This document shows positions 1 to 11,660 of a stretch of DNA of 64,000 nucleotides, piece by piece. The notes beneath the pieces were generated by a model that saw only the letters and a program-made list of their open reading frames with translations, was not told where the DNA came from and ran no database searches. How positions within the stretch are numbered: position 1 is the first letter of the stretch; each line of letters starts with the position of its first letter. A program made the translations under genes and the position numbers. The stretch lies in the NCBI RefSeq assembly GCF_054482525.1, contig NZ_CM137006.1; one strand, given 5' to 3'.

Positions 1-513
1 CGTTTTCAGCAGACGAAATTCCGCAGGCGTCAGGTCAAGCATTTTTCCGCGCCAGGAAGCCTGAAAACGACCTTCGTCGATAATCAACGGGCTTTCAGCA
101 TCCTGTTGCTGCAACTCACGCTGGGGTTTGCAACGGCGCAAAATGGTTTTGACGCGCGCTACCACTTCCCGTGGGCTGTACGGTTTGCAGATGTAGTCAT
201 CAGCGCCAATTTCCAGCCCCAGCAGGCGGTCGATCTCTTCGATTTTTGCTGTCACCATCACGATCGGAATGTCAGAAAAACGACGAATTTCCCGGCACAG
301 CGTCAAGCCATCGGTGCCAGGGAGCATCAGATCCAACAGGATCAGATCCGGTGGTGTCTGGCGCACATACGGCAGTACCTGATCGCCGTGGCTGATAAGC
401 GTCGGCGCATAGCTCGCAGCACGCAGATAATCAATGAGTAACTGCCCCAGCTTCGGTTCATCTTCCACGATCAAAATACGCGGTGTGTTTTCGTCGATTG
501 GTAACTCGGTCAT
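1..513 (-). CDS. baeR: Response regulator BaeR, N-terminal 171 codons; the gene continues past the left edge of the window
   Basis: Reverse complement from 513 reads [26 protein letters not shown]..., a receiver-domain N-terminus. The ATG (511-513) overlaps the baeS stop (510-512). Not in the ORF track because it runs off the edge. Confidence 0.85.
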
Positions 514-1913
514 ACTTCTCTCTGTAAATCCCGTTCCAGCGGTAACTCTACTGTAATGCTTACCCCGCCAAAAGGCGAATGGGCAGCAATAATGCGGCCA
601 TTATGTGCTTCAACAATGTTCAGGCAAATCGCCAGCCCCAGCCCGGAACCGCCGCTGGCGCGGTTCCGGGAACCTTCGGTGCGATAAAAACGTTCAAACA
701 ATTTTTGTAGCTGATCGTCACTGACGCCCGGCGCGCTGTCAGCAAAGGTCAGGCGCACCGTTTTGTCGTGCTGCTCGGCAGAGATTTTCAGGCTGCCGCC
801 GCTGTCAGTGTAGCGCAGGCTGTTTTCCAGTAAGTTATTGAATAACTGCATTAAACGGTCGCGATCGCCAAATACAGTAATACTGTCTGGCAGGGAAAAT
901 TGCAGTTTCAGGCCACGGCTGGCGAATCGTTCGCGAAATGCGCCGCCCGCCACTTCCAGCAGTGGGATCAAATCTACCGGTGCTTTTTGATAGGCGAGAG
1001 CGCCTTCATCAGACATCGACAACTGATGCAGATCGTCAACCAGTTTGGTCAGTGTACCGACCTCCGCCTGTAAAGACGCCACCGTCTCCGGCGTGAATTT
1101 ACGCACGCCATCCTGAATGGCTTCCAGTTCACCGCGCAGCACCGCTAATGGCGTACGCAGTTCGTGAGAAATATCGGCCATAAAATCGCGGCGCATTTGC
1201 TGGTTTTTCTCCAGCGTGCTGGCGAGCTGGTTGAAGTCTTGCGCCAGTTTGCCCAGTTCATCTTCACTGGTGGGCGTCACGCGGGTAGTGAAATCGCCCG
1301 CCGCCAGTTTGTGCGTGCCGTCCACCAGCCGTTTTACCGGTGCCAGCAAACCACGCGCCAGCAGAAAGGTAGCGAGTGCCGCGAGTAACGTTGCCAGAGC
1401 GACAATCAGCCAGCTGGTTTGCCGCTGTTGTTTATCGAAATTGATATCAGTATTGCGGGTCAGTCGCTCAACAGGGGAGGCAATCACCGCACCCACTTCC
1501 GCACCGTTGACCAGAATGGGTCGCCGTGTACCGTCAGGTGGAATCGGCGCTCGCGGACCAACCAGCACTTTGTTGTTTTGATCAACCACCCAGAACTGGG
1601 TACGCCAGCCGTGCGGTGGCATACCCGGGCCGGGTTTATCTTCCGAATTATCGTGTTCAAATGAACGCAGGATCTGAAAGACAAAGCGATCATTGTTGCG
1701 CAGGAAGCGCCAGTTACCATGCTGCGCATACTGCTCGCCAAGCGCATCACTTAACAGTTGTAATCGCTGTTCATTACCATGCTTGATGTAATCAATAAAG
1801 CCACGCTCAAAACTGATACGCACCGCCCAGTGCATACTGATCAGCAAGACAATGCAGGTGGCGAAAATCGCCAGAAACAGTTTGCCGGTAATACCGGGTC
1901 GCCAGAACTTCAT
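510..1913 (-). CDS. baeS: Envelope-stress sensor histidine kinase BaeS
   Basis: 467-aa ORF with two hydrophobic segments, a HAMP-like linker, the H-box ([12 protein letters not shown]) and an ATPase domain (GGSGLGLAI). Same length as E. coli BaeS; sits between mdtD and baeR. Confidence 0.92.
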
Positions 1914-3325
1914 TGCGCGCTCCTTTTTCGCCGCGAAATAGCTACATTTTGATGCGTATCGTTCGGCACTCTGGCAAAGATGAACGCCGGAAGGGCGATG
2001 ATAAACGCCATGCTAAGCCAGGTGTACATAAAGACGGTTTGTGTGGTGCCGCTGTCGACGCTGACATGCTGTGAACCAAAAAGTCCCAGCAACAGCCCGG
2101 CGATAGTGACGCCGATACTCATCGACAATTGCATAATCATCGACAGCAGGCTGTTTCCGCTGCTCGCCAGATTGTCCGGGAGATCTTTCAGCGTCAGGGT
2201 GTTCATGGAGGAGAAACGCGTCGAGTTGACCATCCCTTGTAAAAACAGGACGAACGGCAAAACGTAGTACCAGCCCAGCAGAGCAGTGGTCATAAACAAC
2301 AGGGTGACCAGCGACAGACCCAGCGTGGTCGCCACCAGTACCCGACGATAACCAAAGCGATTCACTACCTGTACCACAATTCGCTTCATCCCCATGCTGC
2401 CGAGCACCATCGGGATCATCATCAGTCCGGCATGAAACGGTGAGAAGCCAAGGCCAATTTGCAGGAAAACCGGCGTCATAAAGGGCAACATGCCGCTACC
2501 GATACGTCCGGCAAAGCTCCCCGCCAGGCCCAGCGAAAAGGTACGAGTGCGGAACAGTTTCAGACTGAACAGGGCGCGGTTGTTATTTCTGGCGTGCAGC
2601 AGATAAAGCACCAGTGCCACCACGCCAACTGCGACCAGGCCAGCAATCGCCAGCGGCGATAAACCTGTACCTTTACTGCCGTCCAGCGCCAGGGTTAATA
2701 CCGCCATGCCAACCGCCAGCAATAAAAAGCCGGAGAGATCAAAGCGCCGCGTCTGCATGGTGTAGTTCGGCATTAACATCAGTGTGGCGATCGCACCGAT
2801 AATCCCCACCGGAATGTTGATCAAAAAGATCCAGTGCCAGGAGGCGTACTCCACCAGCAGGCCGCCGAGCGCCGGACCGAGCAGCGGCCCGACCTGACCG
2901 GGTAACGTGACAAAGGTCATCGCCGCCATATATTGCTCGCGCGGTACGATTTTCATCACCGTAAGCCTTCCGACCGGCACCATCATCGCACCGCCAACGC
3001 CCTGTAACGCGCGTGCCAGCAACAGTTCGTTCAGCGTGCCGGAAAGCGCGCAAAACAGTGAACCGAGAGTAAACAGCACGATGGCGGTAAAGAAAATATT
3101 GCGCACGCCGACTTTGTCCGCCAGCCAGCCGCTGGCGGGCAGCATCACCGCCACGGTCAGTACATAAGAGACAATGACCATGTGCATATGCAACGGACTT
3201 TCCCCGAGACTTTGCGCCATTGAGGGAAGCGCGGTGTTAACGATGGTGGTGTCCAGCGACTGCATAAAGAAGCCGAAAGCCACAATCCACAATTGCCAGC
3301 GGGTGCTGTCGGGAAGATCTGTCAT
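1910..3325 (-). CDS. mdtD: MFS transporter MdtD
   Basis: 471-aa polytopic membrane protein; its stop overlaps the baeS start. Position and length match mdtD of the mdtABCD-baeSR operon. Confidence 0.9.
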
Positions 3326-6300
3326 TTACTCGGTTACCGTTTGTTTAGGTTTACGCGAAAAACGCAGCCGCAGACGGTCGAAAAAGAGATACACCACCGG
3401 CGTGGTATACAGCGTCAGAAGCTGGCTCATTACCAGACCGCCGACAATGGTGATCCCCAATGGTTGCCGCAGCTCCGAGCCGTCACCGCCCGACAATACC
3501 AGCGGCAGCGCACCAAACAGCGCCGCCAGGGTAGTCATCATAATCGGGCGAAAACGCAGCAGACAGGCCTGGAAAATAGCTTCCTGCGGCGTCAGGTTAC
3601 CGTGCCGTTGGGCTTCAAGCGCAAAATCGACCATCATGATGGCGTTTTTCTTTACGATGCCGATTAATAGCATGATCCCTATCAGGGCGATTAGGCTGAA
3701 CGGGGCATTGAACAGTTCCAGCGCCAGCAGCGCTCCAACGCCCGCCGAGGGCAGGGTGGAGAGAATCGTCAGCGGATGTACGTAACTCTCGTAAAGGATA
3801 CCCAGCACGATATACACCGTGGCGATGGCGGCGATAATCAGGATCACCTGCGAGTTCATCGTCTCCTGGAACACCTGCGCCGTGCCGGCAAAACTACCGC
3901 GCACCGTCGAAGGCACACCAAGCTGGGTCATTGCGCGATCGATCGCTGCACTGGCGTCCGAGAGCGATTTCCCGGTCGGCAGGTTGAACGAGATGGTCGA
4001 GGCTGCCGATAATCCCTGATGATTCACCGACAGCGGAGCATTCGCCGGTTGCCATTTAGCGAAATACGACAGCGGGATCGCTTTTCCTTCGTTATTGATA
4101 ACGAACATTTTTTCCAGCGCGCTGATGTCCTGGGTATAGCGCGGATCCACTTCCATCACCACTTTATACTGGTTCATCGGCTGGTAAATGGTCGAGATTT
4201 GCCGCTGACCGAAGGCGTTATTTAACAGACTGTTGGCGGCTTGCACGTCGATTCCCAGCCGTGCCATGGTGTCGCGGTCGTAAACCAGATTCATCTCCGC
4301 GCCGTTATCCTGCTGGTCGGAGTTCACGTCCGCCAGTTCCGGCAATGTCGCCAGTTTTTTGCGGATTTTCGGCTCCCATTCGCGCAGTGCCGCCAGGTCG
4401 TCGGATAACAACGTGTACTGGTAGCTGGCGTTCGACTGACGTCCGCCAACGCGAATATCCTGTACCGCCATCAGGAACAGATTCGCCCCCGGTTCTTTCG
4501 CCAGCTTCACGCGCAGACGGTCGATAATTTGCTGCGCCGTTTCGCTGCGTTCGCCGCGTGGCTTCAGCGTGATAAACATCATCCCGCTGTTCACCCGCGA
4601 ACCGCCGGTAAAGCCGGTAACATTATCCACCGCCGGATCGTCACGGATAATTTTCATAAAATCCTGCAACTTACCGCGCATTGCCTGAAACGAAATACTC
4701 TGATCCGCCTGTATCCCACCCATCAGGACGCCGGTATCCTGCTCCGGGAAGAAGGTTTTCGGGATCGAGATATATAGCCAGATATTCAGCGCAATGGTGC
4801 CAAGCAACACCACGCCCACCAGACGGGTATGATTAAGCACCCATTTCAGCGACTTACCATAGCCTTGTTGCAGGGCTACCAACATGCGACCAAAACCACG
4901 TAGTCGCTTTTGCTCGCGCGGCTTGCTGGCTTTTAGCATCCAGCCGCACATCATTGGCGTTAGCGTCAGAGAAACCAGCAACGAAATACCAATGGCGACA
5001 GAAAGCGTCACGGCAAACTCGCGTAACAGTCTGCCCGGCAATCCGCCCATCAACAGCAGCGGCAGAAACACCGCCACCAGTGACAGACTCATCGACAGCA
5101 CCGTAAAACCGACTTCGCGAGTACCTTGCAGTGCGGCCTGTAGTGGTTTTATCCCCGCTTCCAGGTGACGGGCAATGTTTTCCAGCACCACGATGGCGTC
5201 ATCCACCACGAAACCAGTAGCAATAGTGAGCGCCATTAACGACAGGTTATTGAGACTGAATCCGCACAGGTACATCGCCGCAAACGTACCAATCAGCGAA
5301 ACCGGCACCGCAACGGCGGGAATAATAGTGGCGCGACCCGAGCGCAGGAATAAAAACACCACCAGAATCACCAGCGCCACCGAGATAATCAGCGTTTGCT
5401 CGACTTCTTCCAGCGAGGCGCGAATGGTGGGGGAGCGATCCTGGGCAATTTGCAGATCAATCGCCGCCGGAATGGTTTCCTGCAACTCCGGTAATTTTGC
5501 CCGGATGCTGTCAACCGTCTGGATAATATTGGCTTCCGGCAGCTTGCGGATCATCAGCAAAATAGCCGGTTTGGCATTGGTCATCCCGGCGTTACGTACA
5601 TCCTGTACAGAGTCGGTCACCGTCGCCACATCGCCCAGACGAACCGCGCCGCCGTTGTTGTAATGAATAATCAGCGGCTGATATTCAGCGGCGGTTTTTA
5701 GCTCATCGTTGGTCTGGATCTGCCAGCGGTGAGTGCTATCTTCCAGCGCCCCCTGCGGTTTACGCACGTTGGCATTGCTGATGGCGCTGCGCACATCGTC
5801 CAGCGACACGCCCTGATTAAACAGCGCCTGCGGATTCAGCCCGACGCGTACGGCGGGCAGCGAGCTGCCGCCAACATCGACATCACCGACACCGTCGATT
5901 TGCGAAATCGTCGGAGCCAACTGCGTCGAGGCGAAATCGTACAGTTCACCCTGCGAATAAGTATCGGACGTCAGCGTCAGGATCATTATTGGCGCATCCG
6001 ACGGGTTCGCTTTGCGATAGGTCGGACGGCTTGGCATCCCGCTGGGCAGCAAACTTTGCGCGGCGTTGATCGCCGCTTGCACATCGCGCGCTGCGCCGTT
6101 GATATCGCGGTCAAAATCAAACTGCAAAATAATGCGCGTGCTGCCGAGCGAACTGCTGGAGGTCATTTCACTGACCCCGGCAATGCGCCCAAGCGAACGT
6201 TCCAGCGGCGTGGCAACGGAAGACGCCATTGTTTCTGGTGACGCACCGGGCAGCGAGGCGCTGACCATAATCACCGGAAAATCGACCTGCGGCAGCGGGG

Positions 6301-6403
6301 CGACCGGCAGCATACGGAAGCCCAGTATGCCGCACAGGGTAATGGCGACCGACAGTAAAATCGTCGCCACCGGGCGGTAAATGAAGAGGGCAAAAAACTT
6401 CAC
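3326..6403 (-). CDS. mdtC: RND multidrug efflux pump subunit MdtC
   Basis: 1025-aa ORF with RND/AcrB-family topology, directly abutting mdtB (stop at 6404 next to start at 6403). Confidence 0.93.
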
Positions 6404-9400
6404 TTACGCCTCCTCTTCATGACGGGCAAAGCGGCTTTTGGTCCACAATGCCAGGCGGTCGAATAGCAGATAAATCACCGGCGTGGTGAACAGCGTCAGC
6501 ACCTGGCTGACAATCAGACCGCCGACCATGCCGATACCTAACGGACGACGCAGTTCCGCGCCGACCCCGGTACTCAACATCAGCGGCAGCGCGCCAAGCA
6601 GAGCCGCCAGGGTGGTCATCAGGATCGGACGAAAACGCAACAGACAAGCCTGGTAGATTGCATCGCGCGGCGACATGCCTTGCTCGCGCTCAGCAGCCAG
6701 CGCGAAGTCGATCATCATGATGGCGTTCTTCTTCACGATACCGATCAGCAAAATAATGCCGATAATTGCAATCACATCCAGTTCGCTACCGGCAATCATT
6801 AACGCCAGCAGTGCGCCAACACCTGCCGTGGGTAGCGTCGAGAGAATGGTGATCGGGTGAATAAAGCTCTCGTACAGAATGCCGAGCACGATATACATCG
6901 CCACCACCGCCGCGACAATCAGCCAGACAGTGCTGCCCAGCGCCGACTGGAAAGCGAGGGTGCTGCCCTGGAACTGCGTGGTGATATCCACCGGCAGATT
7001 CAGCGTCTTTTCGGTGTCCATAATCGCCTGCACCGCATCGCCCAGCGAATAGTTATCCGGCACGTTAAAGGAGATAGTCGTTACCGGAAACTGATCCAGA
7101 TGGTTGATGGAGAGCGGCGCAAAACGCTGCTCAATTTTGGCAATTGAGCTTAGCGGCACCACGCCGCCGTCGCTGCTGGTCAGGCGAATGGTATCCAGCG
7201 CCGCGAGGCCTGGGGTATTTTCGGTGTTGTGTTCCAGCACCACGCGATACTGGTTAGCCTGAGTATAAATAGTGGAAATCAGCCGCTGACCAAACGCGTT
7301 GTACAGGGCGTTATCGACATCCGCCATGCTGATCCCCAGACGGCTGGCGCTGTCGCGATCAACATTGACATACGCCACCAGCCCTTGGTCCTGCCAGTCG
7401 CTGGAGACATCAGAAAGCTGTGGCAACTGCTGGAGTTTTTCCATCAACTGTGGCACCCAGGTACTGAGCGCATCCAGTGACGTGGCCTGCAAGGTAAACT
7501 GGTACTGGGTGCGGCTGACCTGAGTATCGATGGTCAGGTCCTGCGTTGGTTGCAGGAAGAGATCGACGCCCGGCACTTTATCCACCGCCGTTTGCAGACG
7601 GGCGATGACTTTTTGCACCCGGTCATCTCGTTCATCCAGTGGTTTGAGATTGATCTGTAAACGCGCACTGTTCAGCGACGGGTTAGTGCCATCAACGCCA
7701 ACAAATGAGGTCAAACTTTGCACTGCCGGATCCTGCAAAATCACGTCCGCGACCTGGCGTTGCCGCTGGGCCATATTGGCAAAGGAGCTGGATTGCGGTG
7801 CCTGCAAAGTGCCCTGAATAATGCCGTTGTCCTGCACCGGGAAGAAACCTTTCGGAATGAACACCCACAGCAGCACGCTAAGCAGCAGCGTGCTGAGTGC
7901 CACGCTTAAGGTCAGCCACGGATGATTCAGCACTTTCGCCAGTCCACGACCATAGGCGGCGATTATCCTGTCGAACATTTTCTCCGAGGCTCGGGAGAAG
8001 CGATTCTGTTTACGCAGCGACTCCTGGCTGAGCATCCGCGCGCACATCATCGGCGTCAGAGTCAGCGACACCACGGCTGAGATCAAAATCGCGACTGCCA
8101 GAGTAATAGCAAATTCGCGGAACAGTCGCCCGACGATATCGCCCATAAATAGCAGTGGGATCAACACTGCAATCAGTGAGAAGGTCAGCGAGATAATGGT
8201 AAAGCCGATTTCACCCGCGCCTTTGAGCGCCGCCGCCAACGGTTTTTCGCCTTTTTCGATATAGCGGGAAATGTTTTCGATCACCACGATGGCGTCATCG
8301 ACCACAAATCCGGTGGCGATAGTTAACGCCATCAGCGTCAGGTTATTGATTGAAAAATCGAGAAACACCATGACCGCGAAGGTGCCGATTAACGACAGCG
8401 GCACTGCGACGCCGGGAATGATGGTCGCCGGAATATTACGCAAAAACAGGTAGATAATCATGACTACCAGCGCGATAGCCATCATCAATTCAAACTGAGT
8501 ATCATCGACCGATGCGCGGATGTTGGTGGTGCGGTCAGAAAGCACCGTCACTTTTACCGATTTCGGCAAACTCTCGGTGAGTTGTGGCAGCATCTGCCGG
8601 ATGCTGTCGGCGGTGGAGATAATGTTAGCACCGGGCTGGCGCTGAACATTCATCACAATGGCCTGTTCTTTGTTCGCCCACGCGCCGAGCCAGCTGTTTT
8701 CTGCTCCTTGCTCTACGGTTGCGACATCGCCCAGACGAATCGGCGCGCCGTTCTGGTAGGCGATGATCAGCTGGCGATACTCTTCGGCGGATTGCATCTG
8801 GTCGTTCGCGGAAAGTGTGACCGCACGGGAAGGGCCGTCGAGGCTACCTTTTGCCGAGTTAACGTTAGCGCCGGTAATAGCGGTGCGCGCGGTTTCGCTG
8901 GTCAGGCCGAGGGCGGCAATCGCCTGGGCGTTAAGTTTGACGCGAACAGCCGGACGCTGGCCGCCGGAAAGCGTCACCAGGCCGACGCCGGAAATCTGCG
9001 AGATTTTTTGCGCGACGCGGGTTTCCACCATATCTTCCACCTGGGTCATCGGCATGGCGGTTGAGGTGACGGCGAGCGTCATGATCGGCGGATCTGCCGG
9101 GTTCACTTTGCTATAAACCGGCGGGTTAGGTAGATCGCTCGGCAACAAGTTGGTCGCAGCGTTAATCGCGGCCTGCACTTCCTGCTCGGCGACATCGAGC
9201 GGTAATGTTAGCTGGAACTGCAAAGTGATAACTGACGCACCGCCGGAACTTTGCGACGACATCTGTTTCAGGCCAGACATCTGCCCGAACTGGCGTTCGA
9301 GCGGCGCGGTAACGGCAGAGGTCATGACATCCGGGCTGGCACCTGGGTAGAGGGTGACCACCTGAATGGTTGGATAGTCCACTTCCGGCAGCGCCGAAAC

Positions 9401-9526
9401 GGGCAGGGCGCGATAACCGATAATCCCGGCGAGTAAGATCGCCACCATCAGCAGCGTGGTGGCGACAGGACGCATAATAAACAGGCGCGACGGGCCGCCT
9501 GTGCTGCTCGGGGGTAACACCTGCAT
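6404..9526 (-). CDS. mdtB: RND multidrug efflux pump subunit MdtB
   Basis: 1040-aa RND-family ORF, paralogous to the adjacent mdtC product. Confidence 0.93.
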
Positions 9527-10773
9527 CAGGAGCGTGCTCCTTTTTTCGCGTATTCGCGGCTGGTGGCTTTCTCTTCCGAAGTGGTGGCGCTCTGGGCTTC
9601 CACCACTTCCACTTTCGCCCCTTCGGTCAGGCGATCAATGCCATCCGTCACTACGCGGTCGCCCGCAGAAATACCTGCGCGGATCACCACTTTCTGACTG
9701 TCCTGAATGCCCGGCGTCACCAGATGTTTGCTGACCTTGTTTTCGCTATTCAGCACCCAGACAAAATGGCCTTCGTTGCCCATTTGCAGAGCGGCGGTGG
9801 GGATCACCACGGCGTTTTGTTCGGTGTCGACTAACATACGCGCGTTAACAAACTGATTGGGAAACAGCGCATCATCCTGATTATTAAAGCGTGCTTTCAC
9901 TTTAATCGTACCGGTAGTGGCATCGATTTGGTTATCGAGACTTAACAGCGTGCCTTCACTTAATTTCTTCGAGTTGGTGCGATCCCAGGCTTCAACAACC
10001 AGCGGTTTTCCGGCTTTTTGCGCCTGTACTACGGTAGCGATATCGCTTTCCGGCAGGGTAAAGAGCAAATCGATAGGATGCGTCTGGGTGATCACCACAA
10101 TCCCGGTGGTATCACCACTGGAGATTTGGTTACCAACATCAACCTGCTTGAGGCCAACGCGACCATCGACTGGTGCGGTAATACGGCTCCAGTCGAGCTG
10201 CAGCTGCGCGCTGGCGACGCTTGCTTCATCAGCCTTAATGGTGCCTTCGGTTTCACTGACCAGCGCTTGTTGGGCATCCAGCTCCTGGCGGGAGACAAGA
10301 TTGGTTTTTGCCAGTTGTTGATAACGCGCCAGGTCACGGCGGGCGTTGGCAAGCGTGGCTTTATCTTTTGCCAGTTGGCCCTGGGCTTGTGCTAATGCAA
10401 CTTTGAACTGGCTTGGGTCAATTTCTGCCAGTAAATCGCCTGCTTTGACCTGCTGGCCTTCCTGGAAATGTAACGCCATCAGTTGACCGTCCACGCGGCT
10501 GCGCACCGTAACGGTATTAGCGGCGGTAATGGTGCCAAGCCCGGTGAGATAACGTGGCACAGCTTGTTCTACGGCAGTCGCCGCCTGAACCGGGGCTAAT
10601 GGGCCGGCACGCATACCACGGCGACCACCCGCTGGCGATTGCTGCGCTTGTTTCGTCGCCCCTGGGGCTGCACTCCGGGAGTCATTGCGGCCTTGCCAGA
10701 ACCAGAATGCGGCGATGGCGGCGATAACCACCACGATTACGATTACCCAACGGGATTTATAACTGCCTTTCAT
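9526..10773 (-). CDS. mdtA: Membrane fusion protein MdtA (periplasmic adaptor)
   Basis: The ORF track gives 9526..10920 (464 aa). I place the start at the internal ATG (reverse complement of 10771-10773, [16 protein letters not shown]...), which gives 415 aa and a signal-anchor N-terminus. The upstream extension has no support. Confidence 0.88.
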
Positions 10774-10826
10774 CGTTAAGAGTTTCTCTTCCTGAAACGT
10801 TTCGCGGAATGATACTAGTGTAGCCA

Positions 10827-10844
10827 GCCAATAAGGGAGAAAAA
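10827..10844 (-). promoter_or_regulatory. BaeR-box-like motif in the mdtA promoter region
   Basis: Reverse complement of 10827-10844 is TTTTTCTCCCTTATTGGC, close to the published BaeR consensus TTTTTCTCCATDATTGGC. It lies about 55-70 bp upstream of the mdtA start. Confidence 0.6.
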
Positions 10845-10999
10845 TGGAGGAATTATGAAACACTATCGGGAATCGTCTGAATGGCGGGCACATTTGCGAG
10901 CACGCATCCAGTAATAACACATGAAACTATTTTATCTACGCGTTAGCGATAGACTACGTGCATGGCGAAAGGAGGTAAGCCGATGATTTCAGCGGGACG

Positions 11000-11145
11000 C
11001 TGAAACGGGAAAGCCCCTCCCGAGGAAGGGGCCATAAATAAGGAAAGGGTCATGATGAAGCTACTCATCATCGTGGTGCTCTTAGTCATTAGCTACCCAG
11101 CATACTAAGACTACCAGGGCGGGGGAAACCCCGCTCTACCCTCAC
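11000..11145 (-). ncRNA. sibB: Sib-family antisense sRNA (antitoxin) overlapping ibsB; boundaries approximate
   Basis: A minus-strand promoter-like element lies downstream of the ibs stop (TTGACA as reverse complement of 11174-11179; weak -10 near 11151-11156). A minus-strand hairpin followed by a U-rich tract lies near 11000-11040. The extent is inferred, not mapped. Confidence 0.4.
11052..11108 (+). CDS. ibsB: Ibs-family type I toxin, 18-aa hydrophobic peptide (MMKLLIIVVLLVISYPAY)
   Basis: Hand-translated ORF preceded by the SD-like AGGAAAGGG. The peptide matches the Ibs toxin family. The A/B assignment is from memory of the K-12 peptides and the copy nearest mdtA. Confidence 0.75.
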   Translation: MMKLLIIVVLLVISYPAY

Positions 11146-11329
11146 TCCTGAAAGTATGCCTTCACGATAAGATTGTCAATCTGCAGGCTTTGCAGTCTGC
11201 GATCCTGCCAGCAAATATTCTTTGCGAGACGTTACGCAATAATCACACTGGAAACTATTTTATCCGCAAGTCAGCGATAGACTGCATACAGGGCGAAAGG
11301 AGGTAAGCCGACGATTTCAGCGGGACGCT

Positions 11330-11480
11330 GAAACGGGAAACCCTCTCCCGGAGAAGAGGGCTTTTAATAAGGAAAGGGTTATGATGAAGCACGTCATCAT
11401 ACTGGTGATACTCTTAGTGATTAGCTTCCAGGCTTACTAAGAACACCAGGGGGAGGGGGAAACCTCTCCCTAACCCTCAC
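11330..11480 (-). ncRNA. sibA: Sib-family antisense sRNA (antitoxin) overlapping ibsA; boundaries approximate
   Basis: Same architecture as the first unit: minus-strand -35-like TTGACA (reverse complement of 11509-11514) and the hairpin CCCTCT...AGAGGG at ~11341-11360. Confidence 0.4.
11381..11440 (+). CDS. ibsA: Ibs-family type I toxin, 19-aa hydrophobic peptide (MMKHVIILVILLVISFQAY)
   Basis: Hand-translated ORF in the second repeat unit, with an SD-like GGAAAGGG upstream. Confidence 0.75.
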   Translation: MMKHVIILVILLVISFQAY

Positions 11481-11660
11481 TCCTGAAATTATGTCACTCC
11501 GCCCTTAGTGTCAATCGACGGCTCTCCGTTCTTGCGAGGCGAATAGCAAAATTTTCTGCGCCGCCGGGCCTAATTCTGAAAGTTTCTTCGTTTGCTCTTA
11601 TTTCATTGTTGCAGTCGGTATGATACCGGACCTCGATAATTCTCTAAGAAAGGATTTCTT

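Follow-up and report, generated by a model that had tools for sequence, protein, structure and literature searches.

BaeR recognition at the mdtA promoter

The region upstream of mdtA in this E. coli chromosome carries a motif resembling the published BaeR box, and it raises the question of which sequence BaeR uses there to control the mdtABCD-baeSR operon: the 18-mer alone, or a longer operator of which the 18-mer is a part. We approached it in a window of 64,000 nucleotides, the whole stretch of DNA that was analysed (NCBI RefSeq assembly GCF_054482525.1, contig NZ_CM137006.1), by comparison with K-12 MG1655, with other E. coli BaeR targets and with orthologous promoters of other genera.

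The mdtABCD-baeSR operon in the window

The stretch is part of an E. coli chromosome: a 701-nt query around the motif was found in 5,419 of 5,426 complete E. coli genomes and is 100% identical to strain 19KM1776. The record of 19KM1776 differs from the window at one of 23,300 compared bases, and its annotation, carried over to the window, provides the gene coordinates:

9526-10773, minus strand: mdtA, first gene of the operon, 415 aa, with its ATG at 10773-10771 (annotated record)
6404-9526, minus strand: mdtB, 1040 aa (annotated record)
3326-6403, minus strand: mdtC, 1025 aa (annotated record)
1910-3325, minus strand: mdtD/iceT, 471 aa (annotated record)
510-1913, minus strand: baeS, sensor kinase, 467 aa (annotated record)
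1-513, minus strand: baeR, codons 1-171 of 240, the gene crossing the window start (annotated record)

The minus-strand order is mdtA-mdtB-mdtC-mdtD-baeS-baeR, with frames that overlap or abut and are free of internal stops. A terminator scan within the operon returned only weak matches, near chance level (18 versus 12.3 +/- 3.6), so that nothing speaks against one single transcript. The regulator part of this autoregulated unit is only partly visible in the window, where baeR is cut at the edge.

The first-pass annotation had drawn the control region out to 10920. This coordinate is the end of a mechanical, GTG-started open reading frame (9526..10920) and not the start of mdtA: the list of reading frames lengthens the gene by 49 codons to GTG 10920, and both annotation and conservation place its start at the ATG of 10773. 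The spurious 49-codon extension takes in the mdtA promoter and operator.

Inside baeS, a weak transcription start (18 reads, Kim et al. 2012) corresponds to about window position 543 on the minus strand, 30 nt upstream of baeR; a sigma-70-like match at 627-600 (minus strand) does not coincide with it. An internal promoter in baeS could provide the basal BaeR needed for positive autoregulation.

An 18-mer matching the BaeR consensus

The motif itself is the following element:

10844-10827, minus strand: canonical BaeR 18-mer TTTTTCTCCCTTATTGGC, with the half-site CTCCCT at 10839-10834 and then ATTGGC at 10832-10827

The BaeR consensus quoted in PMC3799227 and PMC3915751, TTTTTCTCCATDATTGGC, is credited to Nishino et al. 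2005. TTTTTCTCCCTTATTGGC agrees with it at 17 of 18 positions, the lone mismatch being C for A at position 10. The BaeR-box-like motif that had been called at 10827-10844 is real; only its count of two or three mismatches was too high. Nowhere else in the 64-kb window is there a match with three mismatches or fewer, and matches with at most one mismatch are expected by chance about 3e-4 times per window and about 0.02 times per E. coli genome. Between the mdtA ATG and the 3′ end of the box (10827) lie 53 nt.

Agreement with the consensus is partly circular, since the consensus appears to derive from three K-12 sites, those of mdtA, spy and acrD. When the three upstream regions are fetched, the K-12 sites read TTTTTCTCCATAATTGGC at spy, TTTTTCTCCACGATTGGC at acrD and TTTTTCTCCCTTATTGGC at mdtA; the published consensus is their exact consensus, and the window site is the K-12 mdtA site. 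All 18 nt, the promoter, the operon and the distance to the ATG are the same in K-12 and in the window, and the site itself shows no difference. The non-circular figures come from the other two sites: the window site is identical to that of spy at 16/18 positions and to that of acrD at 15/18. Agreement as close as this would arise by chance in the 150 nt upstream of mdtA with a probability of about 3e-6 for spy and about 5e-5 for acrD. The spy and acrD sites share with mdtA fifteen invariant positions (TTTTTCTCC...ATTGGC).

BaeR occupancy and dependence in K-12

Binding of BaeR at the K-12 mdtA (yegM) promoter is credited to Baranova & Nikaido 2002. The window aligns colinearly with MG1655 through the 260 nt upstream of mdtA, with seven substitutions and no indels. 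From the ATG to 91 nt upstream (10773-10864) the two are identical; all seven differences lie farther upstream, two of them in the TTCCAGAC block, at 10865 and 10868, and the other five beyond these. BaeR ChIP-exo in MG1655 has two peaks in this region, peak_5 at 2153931-2153967 (S/N 10.96) and peak_6 at 2153972-2153998 (S/N 14.99; PMC7657598 Data Set S2). Their equivalents in the window are, without strand:

10858-10822: peak_5 equivalent, TCATAATTCCTCCATTTTTCTCCCTTATTGGCTGGCT, 37 bp, containing the 18-mer and 14 nt upstream of it
10817-10791: peak_6 equivalent, beginning exactly at TAGTAT

MG1655 peak_5 shows that BaeR occupies this stretch, of identical sequence, in vivo in K-12. The peak is wider than the 18-mer, and because it spans both the 18-mer and a distal module adjoining it, it does not tell which of the two BaeR binds. 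Peak_6, by analogy with peak_1 of spy, may reflect a cross-link tied to the core promoter and RNA polymerase.

The operon depends on BaeR under stress. With 5% ethanol, deletion of baeR lowers mdtA, mdtB, mdtC, mdtD/iceT and baeS by log2 4.0, 3.8, 3.6, 3.4 and 4.6, respectively, a drop of about 10- to 25-fold, and it has no effect in unstimulated cells (PMC7657598). BaeR binding to the mdtABCD promoter is stated for E. coli and Salmonella, with BaeR as the primary regulator of mdtABCD and CpxR merely enhancing its action (PMC4107485, PMC3160322, PMC2731931). On envelope-stress control by BaeR and autoregulation of the operon, as proposed from the sequence, peak_5, the drop upon baeR deletion and the literature agree. 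The reading of a BaeR-activated, autoregulated operon is supported as correct, and it is textbook knowledge already: the motif is the known E. coli mdtA BaeR operator, in a K-12 promoter that is unchanged in the window strain. BaeR control and autoregulation of mdtABCD-baeSR are established, and the proposal as it was first stated matters little.

Within the species, 5,279 of 5,417 E. coli records carry the 60 nt of 10805-10864 at 99% identity or more; the adjacent upstream 60 nt (10865-10924) reach this level in only 1,548 of 5,110. It is next to inconceivable that the motif arose by chance as a T/C-rich sequence and plays no part in regulation. Such a reading draws solely on the circularity of the consensus, and it would have to accommodate the expectation of 3e-4 per window, the 16/18 and 15/18 identities to spy and acrD, a ChIP-exo peak over the site together with the baeR dependence of the operon, and the near-invariance of the 60-nt core.

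Conservation of the promoter across genera

We compared the regions upstream of mdtA in 80 genomes, which represent about 30 genera of Enterobacteriaceae; Salmonella mdtA is not among the 80. Escherichia sequences retain the 18-mer with 0-1 change from the window, and those of Citrobacter retain it partly, mostly with 2-3 changes. At the orthologous promoters of the other genera in alignment A1, 20 in number and including Enterobacter, Klebsiella, Raoultella and Kluyvera, its 3′ 13 nt are unrecognisable. These 13 nt carry 0.15-1.0 bit per column, and only the five 5′ T's are invariant. Four other blocks stand out in the alignment:

10862-10840, minus strand: distal module TGTTTCATAATTCCTCCATTTTT, nearly invariant in about 30 genera; peak_5 covers it from 10858
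10826-10808, minus strand (CTA onward 10823-10808): invariant block T..CTA(C/A)ACTAGTATCATT, which holds the candidate -10
10798-10785, minus strand: invariant leader block GTTTCAGGA(A/T)GAGA, that is, GTTTCAGGAnGAGA
10882-10869, minus strand: partly conserved block ATTCAGACnATTCC, overlapping the sigma-70-like -35 TTCAGA, which is paired with CATAAT at 10857-10852

The invariant block TTCATAWTTCCTCCATTTTT (10859-10840, minus strand) shares with the 18-mer only the five 5′ T's of the latter, and the rest of it lies immediately upstream. The invariant -10 block CTAAACTAGTATCATT is at a fixed distance from it: CYTYCAT and TAGTA are exactly 33 nt apart in 75 of 78 unique orthologous sequences, and the spacer between them is gap-free. 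By this pattern, conservation in the mdtA control region seems to peak just upstream of the 18-mer.

Going by conservation, the candidate -10 is either TAGTAT (10817-10812) or TATCAT (10814-10809). There is no recognisable -35 hexamer 16-18 bp upstream of it, and none of the sigma-70 calls of a consensus promoter scan uses TAGTAT or TATCAT; an absent -35 is thus found together with the fixed phasing between upstream block and -10. The uninduced data of Kim et al. 2012 contain no mdtA-proximal start, their sole assigned start being the sibA start 646 nt upstream, and the Cappable-seq supplements hold no coordinates that match an mdtA start. The leader block (10798-10785) is probably the ribosome-binding region. 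GTTTCAGGAnGAGA is invariant in 26 of 26 aligned genera, which exceeds what a Shine-Dalgarno sequence alone requires.

A promoter placed differently would change the role of the motif. Were TTCAGA (10881-10876) and CATAAT (10857-10852) the true sigma-70 promoter, or a second one, the motif would occupy about +1 to +18 of that transcript and would act in another way, for instance as a roadblock or leader element. The pair is the sole sigma-70-like match in the consensus scan (9/12, 18-nt spacer), but shuffles yield one such match too (mean 1.0). Both hexamers are conserved across genera, yet so are the spacer positions between them, which a plain promoter does not need. A TTCAGA -35 has also been described for the BaeR-dependent bamK promoter of Klebsiella. 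At mdtA, however, it is CTAAACTAGTATCATT that is fully invariant, and peak_6 starts at TAGTAT much as peak_1 of spy falls on the core promoter there; moreover, BaeR activates the operon, which fits a site upstream of +1. We consider a promoter at TTCAGA/CATAAT improbable, though it may be a second, basal one, and retain TAGTAT or TATCAT as the candidate -10.

The distal module and a similar element in spy

The distal module contains CTCCAT (10849-10844), exactly 10 bp upstream of the CTCCCT of the 18-mer, and the adjoining 10-mers TTCCTCCATT (10852-10843) and TTTCTCCCTT (10842-10833) are identical at 8 of 10 positions. Like mdtA, both spy and acrD have extra CTCC half-sites one or two helical turns upstream. 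A 10-11 bp period of direct repeats is seen, the second CTCC being 10 bp upstream in mdtA, 11 bp in acrD (CTCCTT, upstream of its CTCCAC) and 22 bp in spy (CTCCAT, with TTTCTT between).

The half-site consensus TCTNCANAA reportedly goes back to Yamamoto et al. 2008. At mdtA two units match it at 5/7 positions and the CTCCAT unit at 4/7; as this is no better than the background density, TCTNCANAA is unable alone to support a half-site model there. In spy it has three exact matches. Work in Salmonella gives CTNCA as the core of BaeR sites (PMC3799227). The lone mismatch of the 18-mer hits the A of this core (C in mdtA), and the CTCCAT copy upstream is intact.

At spy, the 18-mer (1825764-1825781, NC_000913.3) is outside the BaeR ChIP-exo peaks. 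The operator peak, 60 nt farther upstream (1825823-1825843, CATAATCTCTGCAAAATCATC), lies on tandem TCTTCATAA/TCTGCAAAA, which are exact TCTNCANAA matches. What spy has in common with mdtA is a TTCATAAT-NN-CTNCA module, whose spy copy carries ChIP-exo peak_2; the spy operator peak and mdtA peak_5 start within one base of each other in the common TTCATAAT. The pattern TTCATAWT-NN-CTNCA, which was defined post hoc, has one copy in the window and one in the 20-kb spy locus; it is also present in 52 of 80 mdtA loci and at the orthologous spot of two Citrobacter spy loci. The two promoters differ in the position of the box, which is 9 nt upstream of the candidate -10 at mdtA and about 40 nt upstream of the TTGACG -35 at spy.

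The other BaeR ChIP-exo peak of spy, peak_1, sits on its core promoter (spy region NC_000913.3 1825764-1825847). The acrD promoter is without a TTCATAAT module and has no peak in the BaeR ChIP-exo data (PMC7657598). TTTACATTAA of acrD might have been a third distal module, but we rejected it: it is 2 nt out of register, and the pattern is absent from the acrD locus.

Extent of the BaeR operator

The BaeR operator at mdtA probably includes the distal module, and the 18-mer is then neither the whole operator nor its most conserved part. A further reading is somewhat less likely than not: the family-wide ancestral mdtA operator may be the distal module TTCATAWTTCCTCCA (10859-10845), the counterpart of the spy element, and the 18-mer, bar its five T's, may be a promoter-proximal addition of Escherichia, Citrobacter and close relatives. 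If this is true, the published BaeR consensus describes a lineage-specific accessory site and not the core recognition element.

The opposite assignment, in which the 18-mer (10844-10827) is the only BaeR site and the upstream block is kept for some other reason, such as CpxR, an UP-like element or an A/T-tract element, seems to us rather unlikely. It accounts for the near-intact state of the 18-mer in three E. coli BaeR targets and for the ATTGGC half, which is also retained in the Salmonella and Citrobacter spy promoters. It does not account for the loss of the 3′ 13 nt outside Escherichia and Citrobacter, as mdtA is nevertheless BaeR-regulated in Klebsiella and Erwinia: it is up by log2 3.7 in an activated baeS mutant of K. 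pneumoniae, and in EMSA the BaeR of Erwinia binds DNA upstream of mdtABC; when overexpressed, it raises expression more than 20-fold. Nor does it sit easily with spy, where the TTCATAAT/CTGCA element, rather than the 18-mer, carries the operator ChIP-exo peak.

As for CpxR, its action at mdtA has been reported in the literature, but the best matches to the CpxR box (GTAAA-N5-GTAAA) in 10774-10930 have three mismatches (10839-10853 and 10911-10925), and such matches are common throughout the window (583 found versus about 492 expected in shuffles). K-12 ChIP-exo lists no direct CpxR target at mdtA (PMC7657598), and the CpxR of Erwinia failed to bind the mdtABC promoter. We keep to an operator that probably comprises both the distal module and the 18-mer.

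A proposed class II model of activation

The motif is, with high confidence, the mdtA-promoter operator by which phosphorylated BaeR, a member of the OmpR/PhoB family, activates mdtABCD-baeSR and hence itself; with baeSR as the last genes of the transcript, this activation is positive autoregulation. In the mechanism that we propose, the promoter would use TAGTAT/TATCAT (10817-10809) as its -10 and do without a -35. Phosphorylated BaeR would bind head-to-tail over about 10861-10823, roughly -55 to -20, and would replace the -35 contact in a class II manner, as PhoB does at pho boxes. The operator would be a head-to-tail array of CTCCAT-like units at 10-11 bp, formed by TTTCAT (10860-10855), CTCCAT (10849-10844) and CTCCCT (10839-10834), then ATTGGC. 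The 18-mer would make up its promoter-proximal part and the distal TTCATAATTCCTCCA the part conserved throughout the Enterobacteriaceae. Both the class II model and the positions relative to +1 derive from conservation and ChIP-exo peak_6.

Class II activation of PhoB at Pho boxes, including its contact with sigma region 4, is general knowledge for the OmpR/PhoB family. The Pho box resembles the mdtA arrangement in being an 18-bp T-rich element about 10 bp from the -10, with no -35 and with direct repeats at 10-11 bp. It differs in its half-site, CTGTCAT as against the CTCCAT-like one at mdtA, and in that both the geometry at mdtA and a PhoB-like contact of BaeR with sigma region 4 are putative.

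A second likeness is offered by the DzrR box at desAB of Dickeya and Burkholderia (CTCCATC-N4-CTCCAT), which has the same CTCCAT direct repeat with an 11-bp period. The footprint of DzrR, an OmpR-family regulator, covers two CTCCAT repeats ahead of an RND efflux operon; DzrR is a regulator other than BaeR and is reported to be BaeR-independent (PMC10052836).

Consequences for BaeR site prediction

What this analysis adds is a small point: the deeply conserved part of the operator would adjoin the textbook 18-mer on its upstream side, a hypothesis that leaves the biology of the locus unchanged. It bears on prediction. Searches for BaeR sites, for example in Erwinia, Salmonella and Klebsiella, have relied on the 18-mer, which appears to rest on three E. 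coli promoters. As the conservation of the mdtA promoter across Enterobacteriaceae lies elsewhere, such scans may miss or misplace BaeR sites in other genera; the predicted efflux-pump and envelope-stress regulons of pathogens would be affected.

Sequence differences and neighbouring genes upstream of the promoter

At 10865 and 10868, the window reads TTCCCGATAGT and K-12 reads TTCCAGACAGT. Position 10865 is T in the window, whereas 91% of the aligned sequences of other genera have C there. The change at 10865/10868 disrupts the direct repeat CAGAC...CAGAC (on the opposite strand, GTCTG-N5-GTCTG).

Next to the mdtA promoter, on its upstream side, are two Sib/Ibs type I toxin-antitoxin loci:

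11037-11179 and 11366-11514, minus strand: SIB RNA genes (Rfam SIB_RNA, 142 and 150 bits)
11052-11108 and 11381-11440, plus strand: ibs toxin ORFs (annotated record)

The ibsB start of Kim et al. 2012 corresponds to about window position 10962 on the plus strand, so that the ibsB and mdtA promoters are divergent and about 150 bp apart.
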